Both the position numbers and the translations under genes were made by a program. From Candidatus Woesebacteria bacterium (GTDB lineage Bacteria; Patescibacteriota; Microgenomatia; UBA10105; UBA927), in the NCBI GenBank assembly GCA_020057765.1, contig JAGVFE010000093.1, positions 1 to 26,429 of the forward strand: DNA of 26,429 nt, written 5' to 3'. Positions 5,195 to 24,689 of the stretch are shown in pieces; the stretch's first letter is position 1, and each line of letters begins with the position of its first letter. The notes beneath the pieces were generated by a model. That model had not been told where the DNA came from, made no database searches, and saw only the letters and a list, made by a program, of their open reading frames with translations.

Positions 5195-6868
5195 ATGATA
5201 CGTATCTGGTCTGTTTTCTCTCTCTTTCTGGTTTTTTTTGGCGTTATTATCACGCGTTTGTTTTACTGGCAAGTCGTTTCTGCTGAAGACCTCCAGCGAA
5301 AGGCTGCCTCACAGTATTATTTAGAATTTACGCTTCCGGCCACGCGCGGCGATATCCAGACATCTGACGGCAAGCCGGTTGTGATGAATCAGCCGGCATA
5401 TTTGGTATTTGCCGAACCCCGCAATATCAAAGACGTACGAACTTTTTCCCGGCTCGTTGCTCCGATCCTTAAAAAAGAACCGGCAGACATTGAGGCTCAA
5501 CTGACGATTGCGGATCGCGTATGGATTCCGCTTGGACGGAAAGTAGAGACTGCCGTTGCTGATGAACTCAGAAATCTCAAACTAATCGGGTTGGGTTTGG
5601 AAAAAGAATCGAAACGGTATTATCCCGAAAGCTCGATGGCTGCTCAACTGATGGGTTTTGTCGGTTCCGACGAGAACGGACGGGACAAAGGCTACTTTGG
5701 TCTGGAGGGCTATTACGATCGTGAGTTGCGCGGCAAGGATGGCAAAATTCAGCTGGAAAAAGATGTACGGGGTGCTCCGATCTTAGTAGGAGAGTCCAAG
5801 CGCGTTGAGCCGGAAAACGGCAGAAGCCTTGTTCTTTGGCTTGATCGGGTGATTCAGCACTCGGCAGAGGTGCGGCTCAAGCAAGGTTTGGAAAAATACG
5901 GGGCCAAAGAGGGCACGGTTGTTATCTTGGATCCCAAAACCGGCGGAGTCTTGGCGATGGCGTCCTACCCTAACTATGACCCGTCTGCCTTCGGCGATTT
6001 TGCCAAGGAACTGTATAAAAATCCCGTCGTAGCAGGGTCCTATGAACCCGGATCTACATTTAAAACGCTTGTGATGAGCGCAGGTCTTGACGAAAAAGAA
6101 GTGACTCCCTCAACAATTTTTGACGAAAGCGGCCCGGTTCCGATCGGTGAATACACCATCCGTACATGGAATAACCAATACCATGGTCCTATCTCGATGA
6201 CAAAAGTGATTGAGCATTCTTCCAACGTGGGCATGGTGTTTGTGGGAAAAAAGCTTGGGAAAGACCGATTGCTCAAGCATGTTCATCAGTTTGGGTTCGG
6301 GGTACCCACGGATATTGATTTGGAAGACGAAGCATCTGCTGATTTGCGGCCGGATAAAGAGTGGCACGAGATTGATTTGGCAACGGCATCTTTTGGACAA
6401 GGTATAGCCGTAACGCCAATCCAGATGGCCCGGGCAGTTGCTGCCCTAGCCAACGATGGATGGCTTATGGAGCCGCGGGTGGTAAAAGAAGTGGTTGACG
6501 CCAAAGGAAATCGAGTCACTATTAAGCCAAAAAAGCTCAAACAAGTGGTCAGTTCCGCCACAGCCCACGTGATGGCCGAGATGTTGGTTGCGGCTGTGGA
6601 CAATGGCGAGGCCAAATGGGCCAAACCAAAGGGCTATCGGATAGCCGGAAAAACGGGCACCGCCCAGATTCCTGTGGCTGGCCATTATGATGACAAAAAG
6701 ACGATTGCCTCTTTTGTCGGTTTTGCGCCTGCAGATGACCCTAAGTTTGTCATGCTTGTGACCCTTCGCGAACCGACGAGCTCTCCCTGGGGCTCGGAAA
6801 CCGCCGCCCCGCTCTTTTTTGCGATTGCCAAGGACATTTTTCGCTATTGGGGCATACCTCCGCAATAA
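5195..6868 (+). CDS. ftsI: Class B penicillin-binding protein (FtsI/PBP2 family)
   Basis: N-terminal TM, RGDI, RYYP, GLEGYYD; transpeptidase motifs STFK, SSN, KTGTAQ. Confidence 0.92.
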   Translation: MIRIWSVFSLFLVFFGVIITRLFYWQVVSAEDLQRKAASQYYLEFTLPATRGDIQTSDGKPVVMNQPAYLVFAEPRNIKDVRTFSRLVAPILKKEPADIEAQLTIADRVWIPLGRKVETAVADELRNLKLIGLGLEKESKRYYPESSMAAQLMGFVGSDENGRDKGYFGLEGYYDRELRGKDGKIQLEKDVRGAPILVGESKRVEPENGRSLVLWLDRVIQHSAEVRLKQGLEKYGAKEGTVVILDPKTGGVLAMASYPNYDPSAFGDFAKELYKNPVVAGSYEPGSTFKTLVMSAGLDEKEVTPSTIFDESGPVPIGEYTIRTWNNQYHGPISMTKVIEHSSNVGMVFVGKKLGKDRLLKHVHQFGFGVPTDIDLEDEASADLRPDKEWHEIDLATASFGQGIAVTPIQMARAVAALANDGWLMEPRVVKEVVDAKGNRVTIKPKKLKQVVSSATAHVMAEMLVAAVDNGEAKWAKPKGYRIAGKTGTAQIPVAGHYDDKKTIASFVGFAPADDPKFVMLVTLREPTSSPWGSETAAPLFFAIAKDIFRYWGIPPQ

Positions 6869-6870
6869 AG

Positions 6871-6879
6871 TGGTATAAT
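6871..6879 (+). promoter_or_regulatory. Internal extended -10 promoter for murE (leaderless)
   Basis: TGGTATAAT fills most of the 17-nt ftsI-murE gap; ATG 6886 is 6 nt after TATAAT. Confidence 0.7.
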
Positions 6880-6885
6880 TTACGT

Positions 6886-8058
6886 ATGCTTCGGAGCTTC
6901 AAAGGGCTTTATCACCTGATTGTTGCGATAGTTGCCAATATTTGGTTTGGTTTTCCCAGCAGGAGGCTGACCGTGGTAGGCATTACCGGTACGGACGGCA
7001 AATCGACTACGACCACGATCACCTACGAAATACTCAAAAACGCTGGCTTTAAAACTTCCATGATTACCTCCGTTCATGCAGTTATTGCCGGTAAAGCATA
7101 CGACACGGGCTTCCACGTGACGACGCCAACGGCCTGGTGGGTGCAAAAGTATCTGCGGGAGGCAGTTAATCACAGGGATACCCATTTTGTTCTGGAAGTG
7201 ACCTCTCATGCTCTCTCACAGTATCGGGTGTGGGGAGTCAAGTTTGCCGTAGGTGCCATTACCAACGTGACGCATGAACATCTTGACTGGCATGGAACAT
7301 ATGAACAGTATTTGCGCACCAAACTATTGCTGCTTGGCGCATCAAAGATAGCGGTCTTAAACCGTGATGATGCCGACGTCTATGACCAGGCCATGGCAAA
7401 ATTACGAAACAAAAAAGTCGTTACGTATGGCATCCGCCGCGATGCCATGGTGACAACTAAAACCCATCCATTTACCACGCAATTGCCAGGAATCTTTAAT
7501 CAATACAATTGTTTTGCTGCGTTGGCAATTTCCGGTGCATTGGGTGTTGATAAGAAAAAAGCAGCTCAAACAATTAAATTTTTTAAAGGAGTGCCCGGTA
7601 GGATGGAAGTGATCCAGAGAAAACCATTTGGTGTCATCGTGGATTTTGCCCACACGCCCAATGCCATAACGCAAGTCCTCAAGACCGTCCGGCCGATGAC
7701 CCAAAAGCGCCTGTTTCATGTTTTTGGCAGTGCGGGACTTCGCGACCGTACAAAACGGCCCATGATGGGCAATGCATCGGCTGAGTTTGCCGACGTGATC
7801 GTCTTGACCGAAGAAGATTATCGTACGGAAGGCGTCAATAGCATCATAGAAGAAATCGCTTCCGGCATCCCGCCAACCAAAGAGGTTTATAAATTTCCAA
7901 ATCGGCAAGTCGCTATTTCGTTTTCACTTCATACAGCCAGTCCTGGTGACCTGGTCATCATTACGGGCAAGGGCCACGAAAAAAGTTTGTGTCGGGGGAC
8001 AGCAGAGTACCCGTGGAGCGATCAAGACTGCGTCAAAAAAATCCTCAAACAATTATGA
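6886..8058 (+). CDS. murE: MurE-family ligase lacking most of the canonical N-terminal domain
   Basis: GITGTDGKSTT P-loop at about residues 32-42, LEVTSH, TNVTHEHLDWH, PGRME, VDFAHTPNA, FGSAGLRD, GKGHE. Confidence 0.88.
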   Translation: MLRSFKGLYHLIVAIVANIWFGFPSRRLTVVGITGTDGKSTTTTITYEILKNAGFKTSMITSVHAVIAGKAYDTGFHVTTPTAWWVQKYLREAVNHRDTHFVLEVTSHALSQYRVWGVKFAVGAITNVTHEHLDWHGTYEQYLRTKLLLLGASKIAVLNRDDADVYDQAMAKLRNKKVVTYGIRRDAMVTTKTHPFTTQLPGIFNQYNCFAALAISGALGVDKKKAAQTIKFFKGVPGRMEVIQRKPFGVIVDFAHTPNAITQVLKTVRPMTQKRLFHVFGSAGLRDRTKRPMMGNASAEFADVIVLTEEDYRTEGVNSIIEEIASGIPPTKEVYKFPNRQVAISFSLHTASPGDLVIITGKGHEKSLCRGTAEYPWSDQDCVKKILKQL

Positions 8059-8774
8059 TGCAAAGACACCTTGGTTTATATCAGTCGACCCTTCTGCAGA
8101 GAGTTCCGTCGCTTTTGCATGGTTTTTCAGGAAGAGCGATGGGCAACATGAAAAAGGATTTGGCGGCACGGAAACGTTTTTTTGATGCTGTTGGCATTGA
8201 TGGGGATGTTACGATATCAGAACAAATTCATGGAGCCGTTGTGTCGTTTGTTGACGGGGCAAAAGAGTCGCCTATAGTGGGATCAGATGGTCTAGTGGTG
8301 AATAAAGCAGGAAGAGCTCTTGGAGTTTTTACTGCAGATTGCGTACCGATACTTTGTGTCGATCCAACGTCACGGACCATTGCGGTAGCACACGCTGGAT
8401 GGCGCGGAACATACGGCAAAATTGCGCAACACGCCGTCGAATCTATGAAGTCTGGAGGAGCTCAAGTTGCCAATATTCTTATCTGGGTTGGACCACACAT
8501 AGGTATGTGTTGCTACTGGGTTGACCAAGATCGAGCAAAACGATTCGTCGATGGTTTTGGCAAGGATCCGCAAATGGCATCATTTTTTGAAAATTCCTGG
8601 CATTTGGATCTTGGATATGTCAATTATCGCCAACTTATTGAATCAGGGATTAAATCAGAAAACATCGACGTTGCGATCACCTGTACCTCATGTCAGCATG
8701 ACGAATTTTTTTCGTATCGGAAAGACTCAAAAGAAACTTTTGGAGAAATGATGGGGGTGATTGAATGGATATAA
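8055..8774 (+). CDS. pgeF: Peptidoglycan editing factor PgeF / YfiH family
   Basis: HGFS, EQIHG, TADCVP, HAGWRG, CTSC, FFSYR. ATGA overlap with murE. Confidence 0.9.
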   Translation: MMQRHLGLYQSTLLQRVPSLLHGFSGRAMGNMKKDLAARKRFFDAVGIDGDVTISEQIHGAVVSFVDGAKESPIVGSDGLVVNKAGRALGVFTADCVPILCVDPTSRTIAVAHAGWRGTYGKIAQHAVESMKSGGAQVANILIWVGPHIGMCCYWVDQDRAKRFVDGFGKDPQMASFFENSWHLDLGYVNYRQLIESGIKSENIDVAITCTSCQHDEFFSYRKDSKETFGEMMGVIEWI

Positions 8775-10174: not shown

Positions 10175-11151
10175 ATACTAAAATACAGGAACTGAAGAAA
10201 ATATTAGGAGAACGGGCGAAAGAAAATGAATTGCTCGCTCGATACACCACGTTTAAAGTGGGTGGTCCGGCAGACCTTTTCTATGATGCAAAAACCGCTG
10301 ATGAATTAACCCAAGCCGTGATTTCCGCGCGAAGGCTTAGTGTTCCAATTTTTATATTGGGTGGAGGCTCCAACATACTCATCGGAGACAGGGGGATGCG
10401 GGGACTGGTTGTCAAAAACAGCACCAACGCCATCGTCATGCGCGGGGCTAAGGGCAGCTATAAAAGCGGTCAGTCAACCGGAAAAGTGTTCGTGGAAGCA
10501 GAAAGCGGAGTTCTTATCAATAAATTAGTCCGCGACACGATTGAGGAGGGACTCGGTGGGCTAGAAATGCACTTGGGTTTACCCGGCACCGTCGGTGGGG
10601 CTATGTTTATGAACTCCAAGTGGACCAAGTCCGAGTCGTATGTGGGCGATGTCGTCTACCAAGCAACCATACTGACTCCTACCGGTGATATGCAGACCGT
10701 TTCGCGTGACTACTTTCATTTTGGATACGATCAAAGTGCAATTCAAATAACCGGAGATCTTGTTCTGAAAATAATTTTCGCCTTGACGCCGACTTCCAAA
10801 GAGACATTATGGGAAATAGCTAATCAGAGCGTCGCCTATCGACGAGAAAGTCAGCCGCAGGGCGTGATATCTGCCGGGTGCACATTCCGCAATATATCCA
10901 AAGCAGAGGCGCTATCCGTTCCAACTCCTAATCACACGACATCAGCCGGTTTTTTGGTTGATCATGCAGGGCTTAAAGGCGCAATTGTTGGTGGCGCACA
11001 AATATCGCCAATACACGCTAACTTCATCATCAACCAAAATCATGCCACGGCTGCTGATGTAGTACAATTGATTGAACGAGCCCGCGCCAAAGTACTTGAA
11101 AAATTCGGCGTAACACTGGCTGAAGAAGTAGTTAGGGTAGGAGAATTTTAA
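10171..11151 (+). CDS. murB: UDP-N-acetylenolpyruvoylglucosamine reductase
   Basis: YTTFKVGG, LGGGSN, GLPGTVGGA.FMN, SAGCTFRN, HANFI. Confidence 0.96.
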   Translation: MNTKIQELKKILGERAKENELLARYTTFKVGGPADLFYDAKTADELTQAVISARRLSVPIFILGGGSNILIGDRGMRGLVVKNSTNAIVMRGAKGSYKSGQSTGKVFVEAESGVLINKLVRDTIEEGLGGLEMHLGLPGTVGGAMFMNSKWTKSESYVGDVVYQATILTPTGDMQTVSRDYFHFGYDQSAIQITGDLVLKIIFALTPTSKETLWEIANQSVAYRRESQPQGVISAGCTFRNISKAEALSVPTPNHTTSAGFLVDHAGLKGAIVGGAQISPIHANFIINQNHATAADVVQLIERARAKVLEKFGVTLAEEVVRVGEF

Positions 11152-12485
11152 TGGAAAAATTCATTATTAATGGAGGTATTCCGCTACATGGAACCGTGGC
11201 TGTCGGCGGGGCCAAAAACGTGGCGCTCAAAACGTTTGTTGCAGCGCTTCTGACCGATGAGCCCGTCGTCATCCACAACGTACCGCTGATTCGAGATGTC
11301 ACGTACATGATGGATGTGTTGCGCAGCCTAGGGGCGACTATTGAAATTTCCGATCACACAGTGAGGATACAAAATAGCACGTCCGTCACAACTACGGTAC
11401 CCCTGGAGGTAGGCGCTCGACTTCGCACGTCTTCTATGGTCATTGGTCCGCTCCTTGCACGATATGGTGAGGCAAACATTCCCAATCCCGGCGGCTGCCG
11501 TATCGGTGCGCGCCCCATTGATCGGCATATCGAGGGACTCAAAGAGATGGGTGCAGAGATTATATACAATCACGACGACGGATATTTTCATGCAACATCA
11601 TCCGGTCTTCATGGAACAACGTATCGTTTTCCAAAAAACACCCATACCGGCACGGAAACATTGCTCTTGGCTGCCGTCCTTGCCCAGGGGGAAACAATTC
11701 TTGAAAATGCAGCCGAAGAAATAGAAATCGATGATCTCATCAAACTCTTGCAGTCTATGGGTGCAGATATCGCGCGGATTTCTGCTCGGACCATCAAGAT
11801 TCATGGTGTCAAAAAGCTCCATGGAACAGAATTTACTATCATGCCGGATCGGAATGTGGAAGTAACGTTTGCTCTGGCTGCCGCAATCACCGCAGGAAAG
11901 ATTACGGTTCAAAACTCGCAAAGACACAACATCCGGTCATTCCTTAGCGCGTTGGGTTCTGCCGGGGGTGTCACGGGAGAAGTGGATGAGCACACAACCA
12001 CGTATTCGGGCAACGGGAACTATAAGCTGACATCCATCGTTACCGCGCCTGACCCAGGATTTATGACTGACTGGCAGGCGCCGTGGGCAGTCTTTATGAC
12101 GCAAGCCAGCGGAAGATCCGCCATTCACGAAACGGTGTTTGAGAGTCGTTTTTCCTATGTTTCGGAACTGAAAAAGATGGGCGCAGAGATAGAATTTTTC
12201 GATCCGCCGGTCGAAGATCCAGAAGCGTTTTATAATTTTAACTGGAACGATCATCCGGACGGCTATCACCAGGGGATTAAGATACTAGGACCGACCATTC
12301 TTCATAACGCGATTTTGGAAATTGACGATCTGCGGGCAGGCGCAACGCTCGTTTTGGCAGCACTTGCGGCTAAAGGTGAAAGCTATGTTCACGGAGTAGA
12401 AATTTTAGACCGGGGCTATGAAAATTTTGAAAAAAGTCTCAAAAATCTCGGAGCAAACATTGAGCGAGTAAAGGAGGAAGTATGA
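11151..12485 (+). CDS. murA: UDP-N-acetylglucosamine 1-carboxyvinyltransferase
   Basis: GAKN, PGGCRIGARPIDRH (active-site Cys retained), PGFMTDWQ, ETVFESRF, DLRAGA, RGYE. Confidence 0.96.
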   Translation: MEKFIINGGIPLHGTVAVGGAKNVALKTFVAALLTDEPVVIHNVPLIRDVTYMMDVLRSLGATIEISDHTVRIQNSTSVTTTVPLEVGARLRTSSMVIGPLLARYGEANIPNPGGCRIGARPIDRHIEGLKEMGAEIIYNHDDGYFHATSSGLHGTTYRFPKNTHTGTETLLLAAVLAQGETILENAAEEIEIDDLIKLLQSMGADIARISARTIKIHGVKKLHGTEFTIMPDRNVEVTFALAAAITAGKITVQNSQRHNIRSFLSALGSAGGVTGEVDEHTTTYSGNGNYKLTSIVTAPDPGFMTDWQAPWAVFMTQASGRSAIHETVFESRFSYVSELKKMGAEIEFFDPPVEDPEAFYNFNWNDHPDGYHQGIKILGPTILHNAILEIDDLRAGATLVLAALAAKGESYVHGVEILDRGYENFEKSLKNLGANIERVKEEV

Positions 12486-13747
12486 AGAATGGTTTTTCAG
12501 TCGTATTACTTGCTGCAGGAATGTCTTCCCGTTTCTGGCCATTGTACGAGAAGTTTGCATTGCCGATGTTTGGTAAGCCGCTTATTTTGCATGAAATTGA
12601 TCACATACAACGCTTACGGCCCAAGGGCATCGTAGTTGTTGCAAATGAATCTAATGTATCAATGCTTCGGTCGATACTTGGTAAACAGTACAAGCTTGTT
12701 GATTTAGTGGTGCAAAAAGGTGAAGGACAGGGAGCCGCTCTTGTTGCGGCTGCTGAAAAAATATACGGTCCAACGCTGATAGTAAATAGTTCTGATGTTT
12801 ATTCATTCGAACTTCTTGATCAACTTGTTGCCAAATGGCAAAAGCAGCGTGGCATGTTGATTACTGCACGAAAAGTCACTCATTATTATCCAGGTGGATA
12901 TCTCAAACTTCACGAAAACGGTAGTGTCGAGCGTATTATCGAAAAGCCAGATCCTGCCGATGTGCCAAGCGATTTGGTTCGCGTCGTAGCGGAGATGGCG
13001 CCTTCATTACAAGAACTTGCAGATGCGTATTTACCGGATGATGACCCAAAAGAAGGTGAAGTTGCTATTCTTAATCGACTCATCTCGAAAGGACATACGT
13101 GTGACACATTTGTGACCAATGAATTTTGGACCCCAATAAAATACCCATGGCACCTTCTTGATGTCCTTGAGTACTTTTTGGGAATTCTGACACCGCAACG
13201 CGGTAAAAATTTAGTACTTGCCGATAATGTGCATATTTCAGGGACAGTCTATTTGGGCGATAATGTGAAGATTTTTGAAAACACCAAGATCACGGGTCCG
13301 TGCTACATCGGCAATAACACGATTATCGGAAACAACAATATCATTCGCGCCAGTCATATCGGGGCCAACTGTGTGACGGGGTTTAATACCGATATAACAC
13401 GAAGTTACATCGGCGATAATTGTTGGTTTCACAGTAACTACATAGGCGATTCGGTGCTTGAGGGGAATGTCAGCTTAGGATCGGGAACGGTATTAGCTAA
13501 TTTTAGGTTTGATGAAGGGGAAATATATTCGACTGTTAAAGAAGAGCGAGTGAATACTAAGCGAACGAAGCTTGGCGCAATAATCGGAAAAAACGTGCGC
13601 GTTGGTGTCAATACGAGTATCATGCCCGGAATAAAAATCGGCACGAACAGCCTCATCAGTGCTGGGATAGTCGTTGATTGTGATATTGCCGAAAATACAT
13701 TTTGTTACGGCAAAACGGAACTCGTTTTGAAAAAAAATGAGCGATAA
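12482..13747 (+). CDS. Bifunctional sugar-1-phosphate nucleotidylyltransferase/acetyltransferase (archaeal-type GlmU-like)
   Basis: LAAGMSSRFWPL..KF.LPMFGKP NTP-transferase motif, IIEKP, and a C-terminal hexapeptide left-handed beta-helix (YIGDSVL, KLGAIIG). SD AAGGAGG at 12471-12477. Confidence 0.85.
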   Translation: MKNGFSVVLLAAGMSSRFWPLYEKFALPMFGKPLILHEIDHIQRLRPKGIVVVANESNVSMLRSILGKQYKLVDLVVQKGEGQGAALVAAAEKIYGPTLIVNSSDVYSFELLDQLVAKWQKQRGMLITARKVTHYYPGGYLKLHENGSVERIIEKPDPADVPSDLVRVVAEMAPSLQELADAYLPDDDPKEGEVAILNRLISKGHTCDTFVTNEFWTPIKYPWHLLDVLEYFLGILTPQRGKNLVLADNVHISGTVYLGDNVKIFENTKITGPCYIGNNTIIGNNNIIRASHIGANCVTGFNTDITRSYIGDNCWFHSNYIGDSVLEGNVSLGSGTVLANFRFDEGEIYSTVKEERVNTKRTKLGAIIGKNVRVGVNTSIMPGIKIGTNSLISAGIVVDCDIAENTFCYGKTELVLKKNER

Positions 13748-14468
13748 AACGAAACCGCCAATTGTCGTGCTTCACGGATGGGGACTGACCGGCGACACAT
13801 TTTCTCCTTTAGTTGAGGCTTTGCGAGGGCTTGGGTATCAGGCCGAGTCACTGGATTTTCCCGGCTTTGGAGCTGCTCAGCTTCCTGAAAAATCTTGGGG
13901 ATTGAAAGAATACGCAGAGTTTCTGGATAAATGGCTCCAAAAACGAAACCTCAAAAATCCTTTGTTGTTTGGCCATTCGTTCGGCGGACGGGTAGCGCTC
14001 AAATTTGAGCAACTTTATCCCGGCAGAGTCACGGCTCTTGTTTTGAGTGGAACACCAGGCTATACGCCGGCGTCTTTGTGGAGAATGATATTTGGGTTTG
14101 TATTTAGCAAGCTTGGAGGTGCGTTATTTTCTCTTCCGTTATTAAATCTTATAGAAGATCCTACCCGTTTGTTTTGGTACCGGCTCATCGGCGCAAAAGA
14201 TTTTTTGCGCCCACAAAAAGTCATGCGTGACACGTTTAAAAAAATTGTAACGGAAAATCTGGTTGCTCCGATGCGTTCAGTTCGTTGTTCATGTCTTCTT
14301 GTGTGGGGTGAGGACGATCGTATGGTCTCCGTCGGTATTGCCCGTCGGATGGAACGAACGATACCAGGCGCAAAACTTATCGTGATTGCCGATGCACGAC
14401 ATGGCGTGCCATTCAAAAAAGCAAACGAGGTTGCGGCAATCGTGAATGAGTTTGTCAGGTCAATATGA
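13737..14468 (+). CDS. Alpha/beta hydrolase
   Basis: LHGWG oxyanion motif, DFPGFG, GHSFGG nucleophile elbow, WGEDD acid and ARHG His. Confidence 0.92.
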   Translation: MSDKTKPPIVVLHGWGLTGDTFSPLVEALRGLGYQAESLDFPGFGAAQLPEKSWGLKEYAEFLDKWLQKRNLKNPLLFGHSFGGRVALKFEQLYPGRVTALVLSGTPGYTPASLWRMIFGFVFSKLGGALFSLPLLNLIEDPTRLFWYRLIGAKDFLRPQKVMRDTFKKIVTENLVAPMRSVRCSCLLVWGEDDRMVSVGIARRMERTIPGAKLIVIADARHGVPFKKANEVAAIVNEFVRSI

Positions 14469-15928
14469 ATATCATTCTTCTTTTGATTTCCGTTCCCTGG
14501 ACAATCCGTTTGGTTGGCAATCTTCTTTCCTACGTGCACCTCTGGTATGTCAAAGAGTACCGCTGGGATCGGATGTGGATTCACCTTCACACCAAGCAAG
14601 GTAGACTCATTTTGTTCCCCGCCCGACGAATACCACCACTTTCGCCCAAGGCGGTCGTTCTATTTTTTTCAACATTTCTTGCATGCGGCGCTCTTTTTTT
14701 TCTTCTCCCCGTTCATCCGCTCCTTGCGTTGTTTGTTTTAGATATTGCGCTTTTTCCGATTACGGCACTCCTTGTCCTTCTCATGAAACTTCCGACGACA
14801 CTTTATCATGAGTATAAAATTGCACAAGCGCTTGCCAAGTTTGGTGCACAGTCAAAAATGACGGTGATCGGCATCACCGGTAGTTTTGGCAAAACGTCGA
14901 CCAAGGAAAACCTGGCGACTATTTTGGGTTCGAAATATAAAGTTCTTAAAACTGAAGCAAGCAAAAATTCACCGATTGGCATAGCCGAGACCTTACTCGA
15001 AAAACCTACGTCTACTTACGATGTGTTTGTAGTGGAGATGGGGGCTTATAAAAAGGGCGAGATTGCAAGGATGTCTCAAATGGTCAAACCGAAGATAGGC
15101 ATTATCACTGCTATAAACACCCAACATCAGGATCTTTTTGGCACGATCGAAACCACAATGAAGGCAAAGTATGAGCTTATTAGCGGTTTAGTGGGTAAGC
15201 GGATTGCGATTTTTAATGCGGACAACAAATATACGCGGCAGATGGCACAATGGGCAGTTAAAGATGGCTGTCGTGTGTGGCTCTACGCAAAAGAAAATTA
15301 TAAACTGCTAAATGCAGAAAAGATTTTTCGTGCAGAAAACATAGTATCTGATCTTGCCCATGTGGCGTTTGACGTATGTGTGGAAAAAAGTCGAGTGCAT
15401 GTGTCTGTAAATGTTCTGGGAGAACATCAAGTGAGTAATATACTTGCTGCAATAGCAGGTGCGGTAGCCGGAGGAATGACTCTCAATGATGCAGTTAAAG
15501 CTGCAGGAAGTATTCGTCACAATCCCAAAACTTTAGAGTTGATTCCGGGAATCAACGGGTCAATCTATATCAATGATACGTTCAACAATAATCCTGATGC
15601 GGCCAAGGCAGCGCTTGCAGTACTTGCAAAGGCGAGCGGCCGAAAGATTCTCGTATTTCAGCCGATGATTGAGCTTGGATCATATGCTCGAGCAAGTCAC
15701 AATGAGGTTGGTAGAGAAGCGGGAAGAGTTTGTGATGACATCATTCTGACGAATGGCAATTTTGCTGATGACTTTATTGCCGGCGTGCACTCGTCAAGTC
15801 CAGAGAAAAATGTTGTAATTTTGTCTCCGATTGAGACGGCAAAATTTATCCGCGGCACGGGCAAAAAAGACGACGCGGTACTTTTTAAAGGAAAAGAAGC
15901 AGAGTTTGCCTTTCGGCTTCTCATATGA
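14465..15928 (+). CDS. murF: MurF-like ligase with an N-terminal membrane domain
   Basis: About 110 hydrophobic N-terminal residues (about 3 TM), then GITGSFGKTSTKE, VVEMGAYKKGEI, INDTFNNNP, MIELG. Confidence 0.8.
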   Translation: MNIILLLISVPWTIRLVGNLLSYVHLWYVKEYRWDRMWIHLHTKQGRLILFPARRIPPLSPKAVVLFFSTFLACGALFFLLPVHPLLALFVLDIALFPITALLVLLMKLPTTLYHEYKIAQALAKFGAQSKMTVIGITGSFGKTSTKENLATILGSKYKVLKTEASKNSPIGIAETLLEKPTSTYDVFVVEMGAYKKGEIARMSQMVKPKIGIITAINTQHQDLFGTIETTMKAKYELISGLVGKRIAIFNADNKYTRQMAQWAVKDGCRVWLYAKENYKLLNAEKIFRAENIVSDLAHVAFDVCVEKSRVHVSVNVLGEHQVSNILAAIAGAVAGGMTLNDAVKAAGSIRHNPKTLELIPGINGSIYINDTFNNNPDAAKAALAVLAKASGRKILVFQPMIELGSYARASHNEVGREAGRVCDDIILTNGNFADDFIAGVHSSSPEKNVVILSPIETAKFIRGTGKKDDAVLFKGKEAEFAFRLLI

Positions 15929-17142
15929 TTTCTCCTTCCTTGTCCCCAAATACAGATTACCATGATGTGCTGCAATCCCTTCGAATGCTGATTTCTCCAA
16001 CCCAATGGAAAGAAGGGAGTGCGCTGACGTGGGCGAGGCAGTGGTTTAGTCAGCGTCTTGCAGAAGGGGAGTTGGCGTTTTTTAACAGCGGCAGGTCCGC
16101 GCTTTTGGCACTTTTGCAAGCATTTGGCATCAAGGTAGGGGATGAGGTGCTCGTGCAGGCTTTTACCTGTGTTGCGGTGTCCAATAGTGTTTTATGGGTG
16201 GGAGCCAAACCCGTGTATGTGGATATTGATGAGACTTACAATATGGATCCGAAAGATGCGGAGAACAAAATTACAAAAAAGACAAAAGCGCTGATCATTC
16301 AGCACACCTTTGGAATTCCGGCTCAAGCAGACAAGCTCCTTTCGCTTGCAAAAAAGCACAACCTTCCGGTGATTGAAGACTGTGCTCACGCCCTTGGCGT
16401 AGCCTATCATGGCAAAAAGTTAGGTACACTCGGCGACGCCTCGTTTTTTAGTTTTGGCAGAGACAAGGTCGTGTCGAGCGTGTGGGGAGGAGCGTCATAC
16501 ATTAATGACAAATGCCAAATTCCAAATGCCAAATGGAAATTAAGAGAAATCGAAAAAAAATTACAATACCCATCATTTTTTTGGATATTTCAGCAATTGT
16601 TGCACCCGATCGCCTTCTCTCTCATTCTCCCGTCGTACAATATTGGAGTGGGGAAGGCAATTCTGGTTGCATTGCAAAAAATGAAATTGCTTTCATTTCC
16701 GGTCTATCCGGAAGAAAAAAGTGGTCAACAACCCGATGAGTTTCCGAAACGATATCCAAACGCGCTAGCGGCGCTTTTAAAAGTTCAACTCACAAAATTG
16801 GATCAATTACTTCAACAGCGCCGCGCTTGCGCACAACAATACTGGACAGCATTAAAATCGCATCCAGAAGTTCAATTATTGCCATTTTCCAAAGAAGCCG
16901 GCTGGTTGCGGTTTCCCATTCAAGTTGACGATCCGGAGAAATTGCTATCACGGGCCAAACAATCGGGCATATTGCTCGGCAACTGGTATCACAACACCAT
17001 CGATCCGACTGGTGTTGATTATGAGGCGATTGGTTACAAAGCAGGTTCGTGTCCCAAAGCCGAATTTGCCGCCCGCCACATCATCAATCTGCCGACAAAT
17101 GTTATCCCAGAAGAAGCTAGTATAATACTATCGTATGTTTAA
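15925..17142 (+). CDS. DegT/DnrJ/EryC1/StrS family PLP-dependent aminotransferase
   Basis: SGRSAL, GDEV, VYVDID, QHTFG, IEDCAH, FSFGRDK (Schiff-base Lys), INLPT. Confidence 0.9.
   Translation: MISPSLSPNTDYHDVLQSLRMLISPTQWKEGSALTWARQWFSQRLAEGELAFFNSGRSALLALLQAFGIKVGDEVLVQAFTCVAVSNSVLWVGAKPVYVDIDETYNMDPKDAENKITKKTKALIIQHTFGIPAQADKLLSLAKKHNLPVIEDCAHALGVAYHGKKLGTLGDASFFSFGRDKVVSSVWGGASYINDKCQIPNAKWKLREIEKKLQYPSFFWIFQQLLHPIAFSLILPSYNIGVGKAILVALQKMKLLSFPVYPEEKSGQQPDEFPKRYPNALAALLKVQLTKLDQLLQQRRACAQQYWTALKSHPEVQLLPFSKEAGWLRFPIQVDDPEKLLSRAKQSGILLGNWYHNTIDPTGVDYEAIGYKAGSCPKAEFAARHIINLPTNVIPEEASIILSYV
16509..16536. repeat. Heptanucleotide tandem repeat (CAAAT[GT][CG])x4 inside the DegT gene
   Basis: CAAATGC CAAATTC CAAATGC CAAATGG, with degenerate flanks TTAATGA and AAATT. 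Confidence 0.85.
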
Positions 17143-18100
17143 TTGGGTAGATTATGTCATCGTCGGTGTGGCTATTTATTATAGTTTGGAAGGATGGCGG
17201 ACCGGCTTGCCGTACCTTCTGACGAGCCTTGGTTCTTTTTTGGCGTCCCTGTGGTTAGCCGTCAAGTTTCACACACAGGTTGGGAATTTTTTAGGAGAAA
17301 AATTCGGATTACCGGCGCTTTGGACCACAGTATTGGGGTATCTGATCGTTGCGCTGGCAAGCGGGGCGATCATTTCTGAAATTTTGGCGCAACTGGTGGC
17401 GCGGCTTCCGAAAAAAGCAAACTCGTCTGTTGCCAGCAAAGCTGCTGGCGCGTTAGCGTCGGCCGTCAAGGGGCTGGTCATCGTAGCATTCATATTATTG
17501 GTTATCCTTTCATTACCTCTTCGCGGGAATATTAAAAATGACATTAAAGCCTCCGTGTTGTCAACTCATCTTGTTCGGCTTGCGGAACGGTATGGCGGGT
17601 CAGTCAAATCCTCGCTGGATGAGGTTACAGAACAAGTACAGCGTTTTTTGACGATAGAGCCGAATTCCAAAGATCGGGTTGCTCTTGATGTGGCGCCAAA
17701 AGCAAGTGATCTGTCTGTTGACGCTCCATCGGAGGAAAAAATGATTGCGTTGGTTAATGGCGAGCGGGCAAAGTCGGGAGTTGAGACTTTACGGTTGGAC
17801 ACTTCTCTGTGGCAGGTAGCCCGCAAACACAGTCGCGATATGTTTGAGCGGCGTTATTTTTCTCACTATGACTCAGAGGGACATGATGCCAGCTATCGCA
17901 TGGATGGTGCCGGAATTTCTTATACGATTGTCGCAGAAAATTTGGCGTATGCGCCTGATGTAACCATTGCCCATAAGGGGCTCATGGAAAGCGAGGGACA
18001 CCGGCGCAATATATTGGACAGCCAGTTCCATCGCGTCGGTATCGGCATCGTAGACGGCGGATCCAATGGCAGAATGTTTACTCAATTATTTGCGGATTAA
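17135..18100 (+). CDS. CvpA-family membrane domain fused to a C-terminal CAP (SCP) domain
   Basis: NWVDYVIV...EGWRTGL and several TM helices, then VNGER, ARKHSRDM, YFSH, AENLAY, SEGHRRNIL. Confidence 0.88.
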   Translation: MFNWVDYVIVGVAIYYSLEGWRTGLPYLLTSLGSFLASLWLAVKFHTQVGNFLGEKFGLPALWTTVLGYLIVALASGAIISEILAQLVARLPKKANSSVASKAAGALASAVKGLVIVAFILLVILSLPLRGNIKNDIKASVLSTHLVRLAERYGGSVKSSLDEVTEQVQRFLTIEPNSKDRVALDVAPKASDLSVDAPSEEKMIALVNGERAKSGVETLRLDTSLWQVARKHSRDMFERRYFSHYDSEGHDASYRMDGAGISYTIVAENLAYAPDVTIAHKGLMESEGHRRNILDSQFHRVGIGIVDGGSNGRMFTQLFAD

Positions 18101-18103
18101 TAT

Positions 18104-19114
18104 ATGTCTTATGAACTTGCTACGATAATTTCACGAAAAGAATGGGATTCATTTTTTTTGGACCACGGACAGTACGCTTTTTTTCAAAGTTGGTTGTGGG
18201 GACAATTGCAAGAAAGATTGGGTTTTCAGGTATGGCGCTATGGCATATACGAGGGGAAAACATTACGAGGTATTGCGCTGGTCGTCAAGGTTGTCGCACG
18301 ACGTGGCTCGTTCCTTCAAATCAGACATGGACCGATTTTTGACACGCAAGGTAAAGAACAGTGGAAGTGGTTTCTGACAGAGATAAAAGCACTTGCCAAA
18401 AGCCAAAATGTCTGGTTTATCCGGTTAAATCCTCTTATAGAAAACTCAATAGATAATCGAACTTTTTATTATTCCTTGGGATTGAAGCCAGCAGCCATTC
18501 ATGCGATGGACGCCGAATATACATGGGTCTTGCCGCTAGAAAAAAGCCAGGAGGAATTGCTTTCGGGAATGCGAAAGACGACTCGGTACGAAATTCGCCG
18601 TGCCATCAATGCGGGTGTCACGATAGAAAAGACGACTGACCCGGCACAATTGAAGCTATTTTTCTGTCTCTATGACGAAACAATGAAGCGCCAAGATTTT
18701 GTCCCCAATCGTGGGATTGCCGAGGAGTTCGACGTATTTGCCAAGGAAGGAAAAGCGTTGCTGCTCTTGGGTTCTTATCAGGGGAAGATTTCGGCAGCCG
18801 CTATCGTCTTGTTTGATAGCAATCAAGCGATCTATCATTACGGGGCCTCGATCCCTTCAGATGTTGGGGTATCCTATCTGGTACAGTGGGAAGCAATCTG
18901 TGAGGCAAAAAAACGGGGGATTTTACAGTACAATTTTTGGGGTATAGCTCCACAAGACAATCCTCGTCATCCTTGGCGAGGAATAACATTGTTCAAAACT
19001 GGGTTTGGAGGCAGTGTCCACGAATATATTCACGCGCATGACCTACCAATATCCCCTCAGTATATCATTCCAAGATTTATTGAGACATGGCGACGGTGGC
19101 GTAAGGGATATTAA
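18104..19114 (+). CDS. FemABX-family aminoacyl-tRNA-dependent transferase (short FemX-like form)
   Basis: FFQSWLWG, HGP, MRKTTRYEIRRA, YHYGAS, QWEAI.EAKKRG, YNFWGI, FKTGFGG. 336 aa with no obvious coiled-coil insertion. Confidence 0.9.
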   Translation: MSYELATIISRKEWDSFFLDHGQYAFFQSWLWGQLQERLGFQVWRYGIYEGKTLRGIALVVKVVARRGSFLQIRHGPIFDTQGKEQWKWFLTEIKALAKSQNVWFIRLNPLIENSIDNRTFYYSLGLKPAAIHAMDAEYTWVLPLEKSQEELLSGMRKTTRYEIRRAINAGVTIEKTTDPAQLKLFFCLYDETMKRQDFVPNRGIAEEFDVFAKEGKALLLLGSYQGKISAAAIVLFDSNQAIYHYGASIPSDVGVSYLVQWEAICEAKKRGILQYNFWGIAPQDNPRHPWRGITLFKTGFGGSVHEYIHAHDLPISPQYIIPRFIETWRRWRKGY

Positions 19115-19134
19115 TAGCGTATACTTTATTTTTA

Positions 19135-19497
19135 ATGAAAGAATTACTTCGGAAGCACCATATTTCAATAAAAACCGCTTTTTCCGGACTTGTTTGGGCT
19201 CTGACTACGCAGCCAAACTTTCGCATTCATCTTTTTGTGTCGGCGGTGGCATTAAGCTCCGCTTTCTTTTTGAGAGTTAGCAAAGTTGAATTGATTATTA
19301 TTGTCTTTACTGTGATGCTGGGTTTGGTTGCAGAGATGATCAACACAGCTATTGAATCGGTTACGGATCTGGTGACGAGCGAGTGGAAAAAGGAAGCAAA
19401 AATTGCCAAAGATGTATCTGCCGGCATGATGTTGACCGTGGCTATCGGAGCAATTGTTGTGGCAGCCATCATTTTTTGGCCATACGTTTTTGGTTAA
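19135..19497 (+). CDS. dgkA: Diacylglycerol kinase family protein (DgkA/undecaprenol kinase)
   Basis: AFSGL, NFRIH, EMINTAIESVTDL, AKIAKDVSAG, three TM helices. Confidence 0.9.
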   Translation: MKELLRKHHISIKTAFSGLVWALTTQPNFRIHLFVSAVALSSAFFLRVSKVELIIIVFTVMLGLVAEMINTAIESVTDLVTSEWKKEAKIAKDVSAGMMLTVAIGAIVVAAIIFWPYVFG

Positions 19498-19501
19498 TCC
19501 T

Positions 19502-20545
19502 ATGAACCTTCTTCTTGGCGTCGTTTTATTTTCGTGGTTCGTGTCCAGTTTGCTTTATATCCCCTTCATACGGATTCTTTATACCTTCAAGATGCGGAGA
19601 ATGCGGCAGGACACGCGGGACGCGTTCAACAAACGAACACCAATTTTTGACTCACTTCACCAGGCCAAAGTAGGCACACCCGTCGGGGGTGGCTTACTCA
19701 TCATTGTCCTTACGACGATTCTTTTTCCATCGATTCTTTTGTTGATTAAATATTTTTGGATCCCTATCACGTCTGTTTATCCGTTACTTTCGGAGGTAAA
19801 GATTATTTTGTTCACCTTTGTTTCTTTTGGATTGCTTGGATTTTTAGATGACGCCAAAAAAACGTTTGCCCTGCAGGACAAAGAGTTTTTCGGGCTACGG
19901 CTTCGACATAAATTAGTCCTTGAGATCGTTCTGGCTACTATCGTTAGCGTCTGGCTCCTGACGGATTTAAAAATTGATATTCTTTATATTCCACTTCTGG
20001 GAGTTTTCCATTTGGGGTGGTGGTATGTGCCCTTTGCGGTCTTTACTATCATCGGTTTTTCTAATGCGTACAACATTACCGACGGACTCGATGGATTGGC
20101 AACAGGGTTGCTGATGATTGCGCTGACTGCGTTTTGGATAGTATCAGCATCCATTTTAGATACGCCCTTGTCTTTATTTATCGCACTTTGGATGGGAGGG
20201 CTTATTGCCTTCCTTTATTTTAATATATACCCCGCGCGTATTTTCTTGGGCGACGTGGGCGCATTATCTTTTGGTGCCACGTTGGCGGTAATCGGTTTGC
20301 TCTTGGGTAAGGCGCCTGTGCTATTAATAATTGGAGCTCCGTTTATAGTAGAAGTTGCTTCGTCATTTGTTCAGCTAAGCTGGAAGAAGCTTTTTGGCAG
20401 GAAACTTTTTGCGGTGGCTCCACTTCACTTGTGGCTGCAGCACAAAGGGTGGCCGGAGCCAAAAGTCGTCATGCGGTTTTGGACCATAGGGATAGTCTGT
20501 GCACTCTTCGGGTTGTGGCTGGCCATTTTGACAAAATCAGCATGA
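19502..20545 (+). CDS. mraY: Phospho-N-acetylmuramoyl-pentapeptide transferase
   Basis: GTPVGGG, GFLDD, NAYNITDGLDGL, IFLGDVG, APLH. Start taken as ATG 19502, just after the dgkA stop. Confidence 0.92.
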   Translation: MNLLLGVVLFSWFVSSLLYIPFIRILYTFKMRRMRQDTRDAFNKRTPIFDSLHQAKVGTPVGGGLLIIVLTTILFPSILLLIKYFWIPITSVYPLLSEVKIILFTFVSFGLLGFLDDAKKTFALQDKEFFGLRLRHKLVLEIVLATIVSVWLLTDLKIDILYIPLLGVFHLGWWYVPFAVFTIIGFSNAYNITDGLDGLATGLLMIALTAFWIVSASILDTPLSLFIALWMGGLIAFLYFNIYPARIFLGDVGALSFGATLAVIGLLLGKAPVLLIIGAPFIVEVASSFVQLSWKKLFGRKLFAVAPLHLWLQHKGWPEPKVVMRFWTIGIVCALFGLWLAILTKSA

Positions 20546-23385: not shown

Positions 23386-24689
23386 ATGGCTCGCGATCGC
23401 ATCGTTTCCGGCATAGACGTCGGCACTTCAAAAATCACTACCCTCATTGCGTCAGCCAATGATGATGGGTCGGTCAATGTCCTTGGAGTTTCCACCGTAC
23501 CAAGCAAAGGCATTCGGAAGGGACAAGTCGTCAATATTGAGGAAGCAACTGCGGCAATTTCGTCCTCGGTTGAGGCCTCCGAGCGCATGGCAGGAACCAC
23601 GGTTGCCTCAGCAGTCATCTCTGTGGGTGGCAATCATATTGCTTCCATCAATTCCCATGGCGTGGTAGCAGTTGCTGAACCGGATAAAGAAATTACACCA
23701 AACGATGTCAAGCGTGTCATTGATGCGGCCAAGGCCGTGCAGCTGCCGCAGTCGCGTGAAATCCTCCATGTGCTGCCGCGCGGCTACATAGTCGACGGAC
23801 AGGAGGGAATCGTCGATCCGGGTGGAATGTCGGGTGTGCGGCTTGAAGTAGATACCCATTTGGTCACAGGTGGGGCTACTGCGGTGCGGAATTTGTATAA
23901 ATGTGTGGAGGAGCTTGGTGTAGAAGTTGCGGCAGTTGCTTTTGGCGGATTGGCCTCTGCCTATTCCTCAACAACGGAAACGGAAAGAGAATTGGGCGTC
24001 GTGGTTATTGACATCGGCGGCGGTACCACTGATGTGGCAATTTTTGTCGATGGAGCGCTTTCGTATTCCTCCGTTGTTCCAATCGGAGCAATCAACATCA
24101 CCAAAGATATTGCCGCAGGTATGCGCGTGTCGTTGGAAAGTGCAGAGAAAATAAAATTATTGCTCGGCCAATCACCCAAGTTTCCAACCCTTCCGAGCGA
24201 AGTCGAGGAAAAAGCCAAACCCAAAAAGACTGAGTCGGAAGAAGATTTGGACCTGCGGGGACTGGGGTTGCCTGAAGAGATGACCACGGTATCCAAAAAA
24301 ACGCTCGTGGAGGGTATCGTTAAACCCAGACTCAATGAAATATTTACCATGGTAGGGCTCGAGATAAAACGGAGCGGCTTTGGGGACTTACTCCATCCGG
24401 CCTAGTGCTTGCCCGCGGCGGAGCACTTACCGTGGGAGCCGTTGAAGCGGCCCGGCGCAACTTGGCCATGCCGGTCCGCGTGGGTATGCCTATGTACATG
24501 TCCGGACTCATCGATGAGATCAACTCGCCGGCGTTTTCAACAAGCGTTGGATTGCTCCTTTACGGAACCAAATCAGGAAAAACTGAATTCGGTACATCGC
24601 TTTCGGGACTGTCAAAAGTAAAAGATCGTATAAAAATTGCAGGTGTTGCCGGAAAAGTGGTAGATTTGATAAAGTCCTTTTTACCCTAA
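23386..24689 (+). pseudogene. ftsA: Cell division protein FtsA, split by a 1-nt frameshift near 24393 (genuine lesion or sequence error)
   Basis: Frame 1 has GIDVGTSK and DIGGGTT and stops at TAG 24403-24405. The -1 frame continues PSGLVLARGGA...PAFSTSVGLLLYG to 24689. Adding one C at 24393 gives a contiguous 434-aa FtsA. Confidence 0.85.

Follow-up and report, generated by a model that had tools for sequence, protein, structure and literature searches.

What are seven genes doing between murA and mraY in the division and cell wall (dcw) operon of a bacterium with a tiny genome? The window analyzed here, the whole 26,429-nucleotide stretch of contig JAGVFE010000093.1 (contig C96 in the 689-kb genome bin G000, which is 76% complete), carries the dcw operon of a Gottesmanbacteria-type member of the Patescibacteria, or candidate phyla radiation (CPR). 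On one strand and nearly gap-free, it runs mraZ, mraW, ftsL, ftsI, murE, pgeF (Cu-oxidase_4), murC, murB and murA, then the seven genes, then mraY, ftsW, murG, ftsQ, ftsA and ftsZ. A sequence-only reading had taken the seven genes for one accessory system that activates and aminates a nucleotide sugar and so builds a non-standard wall precursor. Judged by gene content and by comparison with relatives, the stretch is a composite made up of a GlmU-like gene, a DgkA gene, a variable CvpA-CAP gene and a four-gene cassette. The cassette is where the novelty appears to lie. Our favored reading, for which we put the chances at about even, is that it replaces the Alr/Ddl/soluble MurF branch of peptidoglycan synthesis, supplying and attaching the C-terminal part of the stem peptide. 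The genes concerned and their flanks are as follows.

11151..12485, + strand: murA, the upstream flank, outside the block (TIGR01072, 448.8 bits, above the cut-off)
12482..13747, + strand: GlmU-like gene (NTP_transferase, PF00483, plus hexapeptide repeats)
13737..14468, + strand: alpha/beta-fold serine hydrolase, cassette gene 1, 243 residues (Abhydrolase_1, E 5.5e-23)
14465..15928, + strand: membrane MurF-type ligase, cassette gene 2 (Mur_ligase_M, PF08245, E 2.7e-44; Mur_ligase_C, PF02875, E 2.4e-12)
15925..17142, + strand: DegT-like pyridoxal phosphate (PLP) enzyme, cassette gene 3 (DegT_DnrJ_EryC1, PF01041, E 4e-62, in two stretches)
17135..18100, + strand: CvpA-CAP gene (Colicin_V, E 2.8e-17; CAP, E 8e-17)
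18104..19114, + strand: FemX-like transferase, cassette gene 4 (FemAB, PF02388, E 1.4e-39)
19135..19497, + strand: DgkA-family small membrane kinase (DAGK_prokar, PF01219, E 3.3e-30, model positions 2-102)
19502..20545, + strand: mraY, the downstream flank (Glycos_transf_4)

The seven open reading frames (ORFs), their Pfam and NCBIfam domains and every junction agree with the sequence-only reading. Read off the sequence, the junctions include ATGA overlaps at 12482, 14465 and 15925, and the others in the block are overlaps of 11 and 8 nucleotides and gaps of 3, 20 and 4 nucleotides. The alignment of mraY orthologs begins at residue 1 of the ATG at 19502, with 89% identity. The tight spacing was therefore correctly described, but it does not set the block apart. 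The packing of all junctions from mraZ to ftsA lies between a 70-nucleotide overlap and a 4-nucleotide gap, and since every one of them is equally tight, coupled translation characterizes the operon in general.

Gene neighborhoods are more telling. Forty relatives were searched with the DegT-like protein, counting as full-length orthologs those matches with E < 1e-50 that covered residues 2-403. Such orthologs occur in 27 of the 40, and ordinary DegT paralogs match over residues 50-196 only. When the window proteins were mapped onto up to 20 kb around each ortholog, the order murA-GlmU-hydrolase-MurF-DegT-[slot]-FemX-DgkA-mraY recurred in the 27 relatives, throughout the family and the order. 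Across the phylum, the probe was the DegT-like protein's C-terminal half, which is specific to the subfamily; 70 of the 401 genomes sampled, spread over many families, have it. A FemX-like gene lies 3′ of the DegT-like gene on the same strand in all 20 phylum-level loci, the hydrolase and the membrane MurF lie upstream of it in 13, and most of the 20 are outside any dcw cluster. A pattern scan with one genome per species brought the carriers to at least 598 species-level genomes, labeled among others Gottesman-, Woese-, Roizman- and Levybacteria, Saccharibacteria, Paceibacterota, Spechtbacterales and Portnoybacteria. Of the best 80 loci of these carriers, 73 have FemX downstream of the DegT-like gene and 60 have the complete hydrolase-MurF-DegT order, with the hydrolase directly upstream of the MurF-like gene. 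Overall, about 130 loci were compared (27 + 20 + 80). In one genome (G157) the DegT-like and FemX-like parts form a single 798-residue DegT::FemAB protein (a fusion of this length lies at L092:294-2690), and in another (G274) the DegT-FemX pair stands alone, without hydrolase and MurF. A predicted complex of the DegT-like and FemX-like proteins scored 0.00, which speaks neither for nor against their association.

The hydrolase, membrane MurF, DegT-like and FemX-like genes are thus a phylum-wide cassette of the Patescibacteria, found inside and outside dcw clusters. The expected co-location with mur genes was borne out, and the order of these four genes is kept; GlmU-like, DgkA and CvpA-CAP are inherited independently. 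Likewise, the suspected wide spread in CPR genomes is real for the four-gene cassette and not for the seven-gene block. The gene set also seems to be functionally undescribed, as had been supposed: literature searches found no paper on the cassette or on extra genes in CPR dcw clusters, and a study of dcw evolution leaves the CPR out explicitly (PMC8871954). Many plainly patescibacterial records (L097, L098, L100 and others) are titled "uncultured Gammaproteobacteria," "Woesearchaeota," "Pacearchaeota" or "Anaerolineales." Both gene content and identity place them in the Patescibacteria, and such depositor labels look unreliable.

The clue to function is what the carriers lack. Among 41 relatives, Alr was found in one of 28 cassette genomes vs. 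four of 13 others, and Ddl above its curated cut-off in none of the 28 vs. five of the 13. The 401-genome sample gives the same picture: Alr (E <= 1e-30) in 6/70 cassette genomes vs. 138/331 others, and Ddl above the cut-off in 1/70 vs. 121/331, the latter including the unpublished genome G193. The identical sample was used in each phylum search and overlaps were tallied by hand. The six phylum-level genomes with both Alr and cassette are each weak on one side. Five, G274 among them, have the weakest DegT-like matches (E 1e-17 to 1e-22), and in the sixth, G135, the only Alr match is below its cut-off. This near mutual exclusion directs attention to the precursor's peptide end and away from its sugar. 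A cassette-less member of the same family, G009, is instructive here. Its operon reads murA, GlmU-like, Ddl, a soluble 463-residue MurF, a metallo-beta-lactamase (MBL)-fold protein, DgkA and mraY. With Ddl and MurF occupying the equivalent slot and Alr and Ddl nearly absent from carriers, the D-Ala-D-Ala branch has, on the simplest reading, undergone non-orthologous displacement. The FtsI transpeptidase is encoded in the window's operon, so a donor of the D-Ala-D-Ala type is still expected. Conserved catalytic residues in all four cassette proteins also speak for displacement.

The hydrolase has a Ser-Asp-His triad with its nucleophile in a G-x-S-x-G elbow. Among 41 orthologs, 95% or more share S81 (in GHSFGG), D194 and H222, and the protein is predicted to be a cytoplasmic alpha/beta-fold serine hydrolase. 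The MurF-like protein has the ATP-binding central domain with its P-loop and the C-terminal domain of MurF; it does not have the N-terminal domain that holds UDP-N-acetylmuramic acid, and it scores below the TIGR01143 cut-off (232.7 vs. 288.6 bits, E 7e-69, match from model position 62). About 110 residues of membrane segments take the place of the UDP-binding domain ahead of the P-loop, an arrangement kept in 34 of 36 orthologs. The hydrophobic segments span residues 3-22 and 59-114, K30 and R36 in the membrane part are conserved, and so, at 95% or more, are the P-loop (G136-K143) and H221. This gene had been counted as accessory, but no other MurF candidate was found in G001 and G018, the two complete relatives checked, and it thus performs a core step. 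The window's MurE (6847-8058) is likewise short, at only 403 residues, and the murE model matches it from position 71. Like the MurF-like protein, it is missing the greater part of the UDP-binding domain at its N-terminus, and no hydrophobic segment was detected in it.

The DegT-like protein is a PLP fold type I enzyme with a Schiff-base lysine (K181) and a pyridine-binding aspartate (D152), both invariant in 26 sequences; R179-D180 and an SFGRDK motif mark the subfamily. It has no full-length likeness to a characterized sugar aminotransferase at an equivalog cut-off. The best NCBIfam match is a LegC-family model (148 vs. 420 bits), all NCBIfam sugar-aminotransferase equivalogs fall far below their cut-offs, the C-terminal half is specific to the subfamily, and solved structures align mainly over residues 50-200. 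The AlphaFold2 model (predicted local distance difference test score 95) places extra helices at residues 202-266. A Foldseek search with it returned only sugar aminotransferases, the nearest being ArnB, perosamine synthase and WecE (template modeling (TM) scores 0.73-0.83). Those hits are expected, and they do not discriminate among functional readings. On these comparisons, the protein belongs to a subfamily of its own, with a helical insertion at about residues 200-268, and the public labels "perosamine synthetase" and "dTDP-sugar transaminase" are probably wrong for it. No keto-sugar-forming partner (4,6-dehydratase or 3-dehydrogenase) was found beside the DegT-like gene at any of the 27 + 20 + 80 loci, with the window's own genes as probes and Pfam searches of the slot genes. 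Two other ideas about this protein were dropped. The insertion is not a membrane hairpin, as no hydrophobic segment exceeds the threshold at 200-268 and the model shows confident soluble helices. Nor does the protein stand in for GlmS, which is above its cut-off in 32 of the 41 relatives, G000 included; transamination of fructose-6-phosphate would in any case not yield glucosamine-6-phosphate.

The FemX-like protein has the FemAB fold and a C-terminal FK-x-GFGG motif. Its nearest solved structure is Staphylococcus aureus FemX (6snr, E 5e-15), and the motif aligns with 6snr and with 9wqw, a solved aminoacyl-transfer RNA (tRNA)-dependent peptide synthase. Across 46 sequences, F297 and K298 show conservation of at least 95%. 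They correspond to the Phe-Lys pair that is essential in Weissella viridescens FemX. The transferase is presumed to depend on aminoacyl-tRNA. Its score against the FemX equivalog NF047883 is 34.7 bits vs. a cut-off of 500, so that donor and acceptor specificity cannot be transferred to it.

How might these four enzymes finish a stem peptide? In the scheme that we propose, which hangs together best in our view, the PLP enzyme would set the D configuration on a carrier-bound alanine with a free alpha-amine, e.g., Ala-tRNA; the Fem-type enzyme would form a peptide bond from an aminoacyl-tRNA; the serine hydrolase would cleave the ester and free the product; and the membrane-bound MurF would join the product to the tripeptide precursor. 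We infer each of these steps, and the scheme as written is tentative and rather unlikely to hold in every detail. Taken further, it would amount to a third, tRNA-dependent route to D-Ala-D-Ala, with a DegT epimerase, a dipeptide bond made by a Fem enzyme, release by the hydrolase and a membrane MurF possibly working on a lipid-linked tripeptide. That such a route exists here is a speculative proposal against which we would lean. If it were true, hundreds of species in the CPR would make their walls with neither alanine racemase nor Ddl.

Other wall genes of the genus offer a precedent for one element of the scheme. The sister genome G001 has a MurL-like and MurD pair on another contig (C2:73557-75942). 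MurI was not found in G000 (76% complete) or G001. On sequence similarity, the window's lineage makes D-Glu after ligation via the MurL-like epimerase and MurD, without MurI. Post-ligation synthesis of D-Glu is a precedent for making D-centers after activation, and fits a life without pools of free D-amino acids. In most relatives murI-murD, or a MurL-like epimerase (367 bits vs. a cut-off of 700) with murD, sits between mraY and ftsW (e.g., L053:13079-15248; L044:13982-16605); the murD-containing pair has left the operon in the window's genus. The notion that the genus has no MurD is refuted by the G001 pair, G000 being only 76% complete. Contig C98 of G000 (L004:460-3326) carries HtpX, a MurT-like ligase (252 bits, below the cut-off) and a GatD-like amidotransferase. 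We rejected MurD as an identity for this ligase given its MurT-like sequence and GatD-like neighbor. The pair is likely a lipid II iso-glutamine synthase, which implies a precursor of Gram-positive type.

The remaining three genes behave differently from the cassette. The GlmU-like protein combines a nucleotidyltransferase and a left-handed beta-helix acetyltransferase domain. It reaches no curated cut-off, scoring 238 bits against TIGR03992 (Arch_glmU; cut-off 292, model positions 3-393) and 98 bits against the glmU model (cut-off 367). Each of the five genomes checked has no other full-length bifunctional GlmU homolog, so the ordinary pathway needs this one. It lies beside murA even in cassette-less relatives, and these two facts together argue for a housekeeping supply of UDP-N-acetylglucosamine (UDP-GlcNAc) to MurA. 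The places of GlmU-like and DgkA beside murA and mraY are kept in the cassette-less G009, G010, G016 and G037. In G016 and G037, which lack a DegT-like ortholog, GlmU-like and/or DgkA are retained there, and the order in G010 is murA, GlmU-like, CvpA-CAP, DgkA and mraY, so that CvpA-CAP too occurs without the cassette. Retention in relatives without the DegT-like gene means that the three genes are inherited independently of the other four. This finding, and the variable slot that holds CvpA-CAP, tell against a single seven-gene system. DgkA has the three-helix membrane kinase domain DAGK_prokar and is absent from Levybacteria- and Woesebacteria-type loci in the 80-locus survey. It is likely an undecaprenol kinase that supplies the lipid carrier for MraY and travels with mraY.

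The CvpA-CAP protein, which is not a cassette member, joins a membrane domain of CvpA type to a CAP/YkwD domain outside the cytoplasm (YkwD model, E 4e-32; DalA model, E 7.5e-11). DalA is a peptidoglycan-binding, divisome-associated lipoprotein of Rhodobacter (PMC10470522). The gene is present in 12 of the best 80 loci, and this version of the locus is confined to a Gottesmanbacteria subgroup. Otherwise, the slot between DegT and FemX holds an MBL-fold hydrolase and a 112-residue Phage_holin_4_2 protein, or is empty. CvpA-CAP is thus an envelope protein that varies by lineage, and a reasonable guess is that it faces the wall and assists the division machinery. The MBL-fold hydrolase, of about 210 residues and often accompanied by the 112-residue Phage_holin_4_2 membrane protein, is a frequent dcw resident in the same family (L046:8439-9472, L056:10639-11259, L065:12863-13525, L064:9426-10064). 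Loci with the cassette and loci lacking it both have this hydrolase; the window does not.

A number of points weigh against displacement of the D-Ala-D-Ala branch. We know of no DegT-family enzyme that racemizes or epimerizes amino acids, and in both fold and sequence the DegT-like protein is closest to nucleotide-sugar aminotransferases. FemX enzymes classically add side-chain branches, a role that would explain FemX here without new chemistry. In three of the 27 relatives (L045, L048 and L051) and in five of the best 80 loci, the hydrolase and DegT-like genes have no MurF gene between them. Over half of the genomes without the cassette have neither Alr nor Ddl, so D-Ala scavenging or peptidoglycan loss is frequent across the phylum. 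The 401-genome sample was taken irrespective of mraY, its related genomes are not independent, and a single family (f42) contributes about 20 of the 70 cassette genomes. One relative, G008, carries both the cassette and Alr. Finally, the window's genus keeps a sub-threshold Ddl-family ligase (on contig C110 of G000, and in G001), which could make the dipeptide.

These points lend weight to an ordinary Lys-type pathway with tailoring. Here the membrane MurF would add D-Ala-D-Ala that is scavenged or made by a Ddl-like enzyme and FemX would add a branch residue, as in Weissella or Staphylococcus, while the DegT-like enzyme and the hydrolase would epimerize or transaminate the alpha-amine of the branch or remove mis-added residues, thus tailoring or proofreading the branch or precursor. 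Membership of the FemX family with an aligned FK-x-GFGG motif fits this explanation, as do the Gram-positive-style lipid II implied by the MurT/GatD-like pair, the Ddl-family ligase in the window's genus, the many cassette-less genomes likewise without Alr and Ddl, the presence of the editing enzyme pgeF in the operon, and the DegT::FemX fusion, which would suit two enzymes acting in turn on one molecule. Yet tailoring leaves unexplained why cassette and Alr/Ddl nearly exclude each other and why Ddl and MurF fill the equivalent slot in G009. Moreover, a Ddl-like match at E <= 1e-40 occurs in only ten of the 70 cassette genomes, and so is not a general source of the dipeptide. We consider tailoring unlikely, though the most serious competitor to displacement.

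The original proposal, in which all seven genes form a pathway where GlmU-like activates a sugar, DegT aminates it, FemX aminoacylates the new amine and the hydrolase and DgkA give support, has on its side that the DegT-like fold is nearest to UDP/GDP-sugar aminotransferases and that the DegT-like and FemX-like genes are adjacent in all 20 phylum-level loci and sometimes fused, as if one made the acceptor amine for the other. We now find it highly unlikely. Activation followed by amination would call for a keto-sugar-making dehydratase or dehydrogenase, and none was seen at the roughly 130 loci probed with the window's own genes; the GlmU-like, DgkA and CvpA-CAP genes have a separate inheritance; the only full-length GlmU homolog of each genome is needed for the ordinary pathway; and the DegT-like protein misses the sugar-aminotransferase cut-offs by far and has a C-terminal half of its own. 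The extra genes might also share no function and simply ride in the long, tight operon of a streamlined genome. The equally tight mraZ-ftsA junctions and the acceptance of unrelated genes in the DegT-FemX slot would agree with this, but a four-gene order kept phylum-wide, also away from dcw, a natural DegT::FemAB fusion and conserved catalytic residues make such passengers barely credible. Displacement of the D-Ala-D-Ala branch by the cassette remains the reading that we favor.

Some observations stand beside this argument. In G001 the Ddl-family ligase (L096:3677-4834) has 385 residues, a divergent N-terminus and a score of 201 bits vs. a cut-off of 243; it adjoins a TraD/VirD4-like coupling protein and a tyrosine recombinase, not wall genes. 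The G000 copy is partial and lies at the start of contig C110. Two relatives of the same family, G003 and G004 (90-95% complete), have no mraY at E <= 1e-20 and no DegT-like gene, and may have lost peptidoglycan synthesis; the joint absence accords with displacement. Within the window, ftsA is split (23386-24689) into a 339-residue ORF that runs to 24405 and a 94-residue ORF at 24405-24689, which carries what remains of this domain (Pfam FtsA, model positions 88-127). The match of the first piece in relatives ends at about residue 335, and the split is either a frameshift or an assembly error. The Cu-oxidase_4 (YfiH/PgeF-type) gene at 7989-8774, between murE and murC, keeps its position in nearly all relatives examined. 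A role as peptidoglycan editing factor has been described for members of this family.

Alr, Ddl and MurF are near-universal textbook steps and drug targets (D-cycloserine; the ligand of vancomycin). A cassette that sits at the Ddl-MurF site and occurs almost only in genomes without Alr and Ddl suggests that much bacterial diversity finishes its wall precursor differently. The answer would bring new DegT and Fem enzymology and help to explain where CPR bacteria with tiny genomes obtain their D-amino acids.

Compared with the classical Alr, Ddl and MurF set, the cassette has the same place in the operon (the ddl-murF site of G009), a last ligase of the same family and, by expectation, the same outcome: a stem whose end serves the FtsI transpeptidase as donor. 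It differs in having neither an alanine racemase nor an ATP-grasp ligase, and its MurF has a membrane anchor instead of a UDP-binding N-terminal domain and is partnered by a DegT-fold PLP enzyme, a Fem transferase and a serine hydrolase. The FemX-like protein shares the FemAB fold, a similar length and the FK-x-GFGG motif with W. viridescens FemX and S. aureus FemX/FemA/FemB (6snr), but is very distant from them and is tied to, and sometimes fused with, a PLP enzyme. The DegT sugar aminotransferases QdtB (3frk), ArnB (1mdo/4oca), perosamine synthase (3dr7) and WecE (4piw) have the same PLP fold type I, with K181 of the DegT-like protein as the Schiff-base lysine, D152 at the pyridine nitrogen and TM-scores of 0.73-0.83. 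In contrast to them, the DegT-like protein, at 21-27% identity, has about 60 additional helical residues following the lysine and a subfamily-specific C-terminal half with the SFGRDK motif, and its gene is embedded among peptide-stem genes without a keto-sugar-forming partner. The CAP domain of CvpA-CAP matches both the DalA and the YkwD-type models, and its CvpA-type N-terminal anchor matches the MarP family model; unlike DalA, against which it scores 42 bits vs. a cut-off of 200, it is anchored by a CvpA membrane domain and not by a lipid. In the MurD2/MurL route, L-Glu is ligated and then epimerized on the nucleotide precursor to give D-Glu. The cassette scheme would involve another residue and another enzyme family, and MurD2/MurL uses neither PLP nor tRNA; what the two would share is that D-centers are made after activation, and not drawn from a pool supplied by free racemases.

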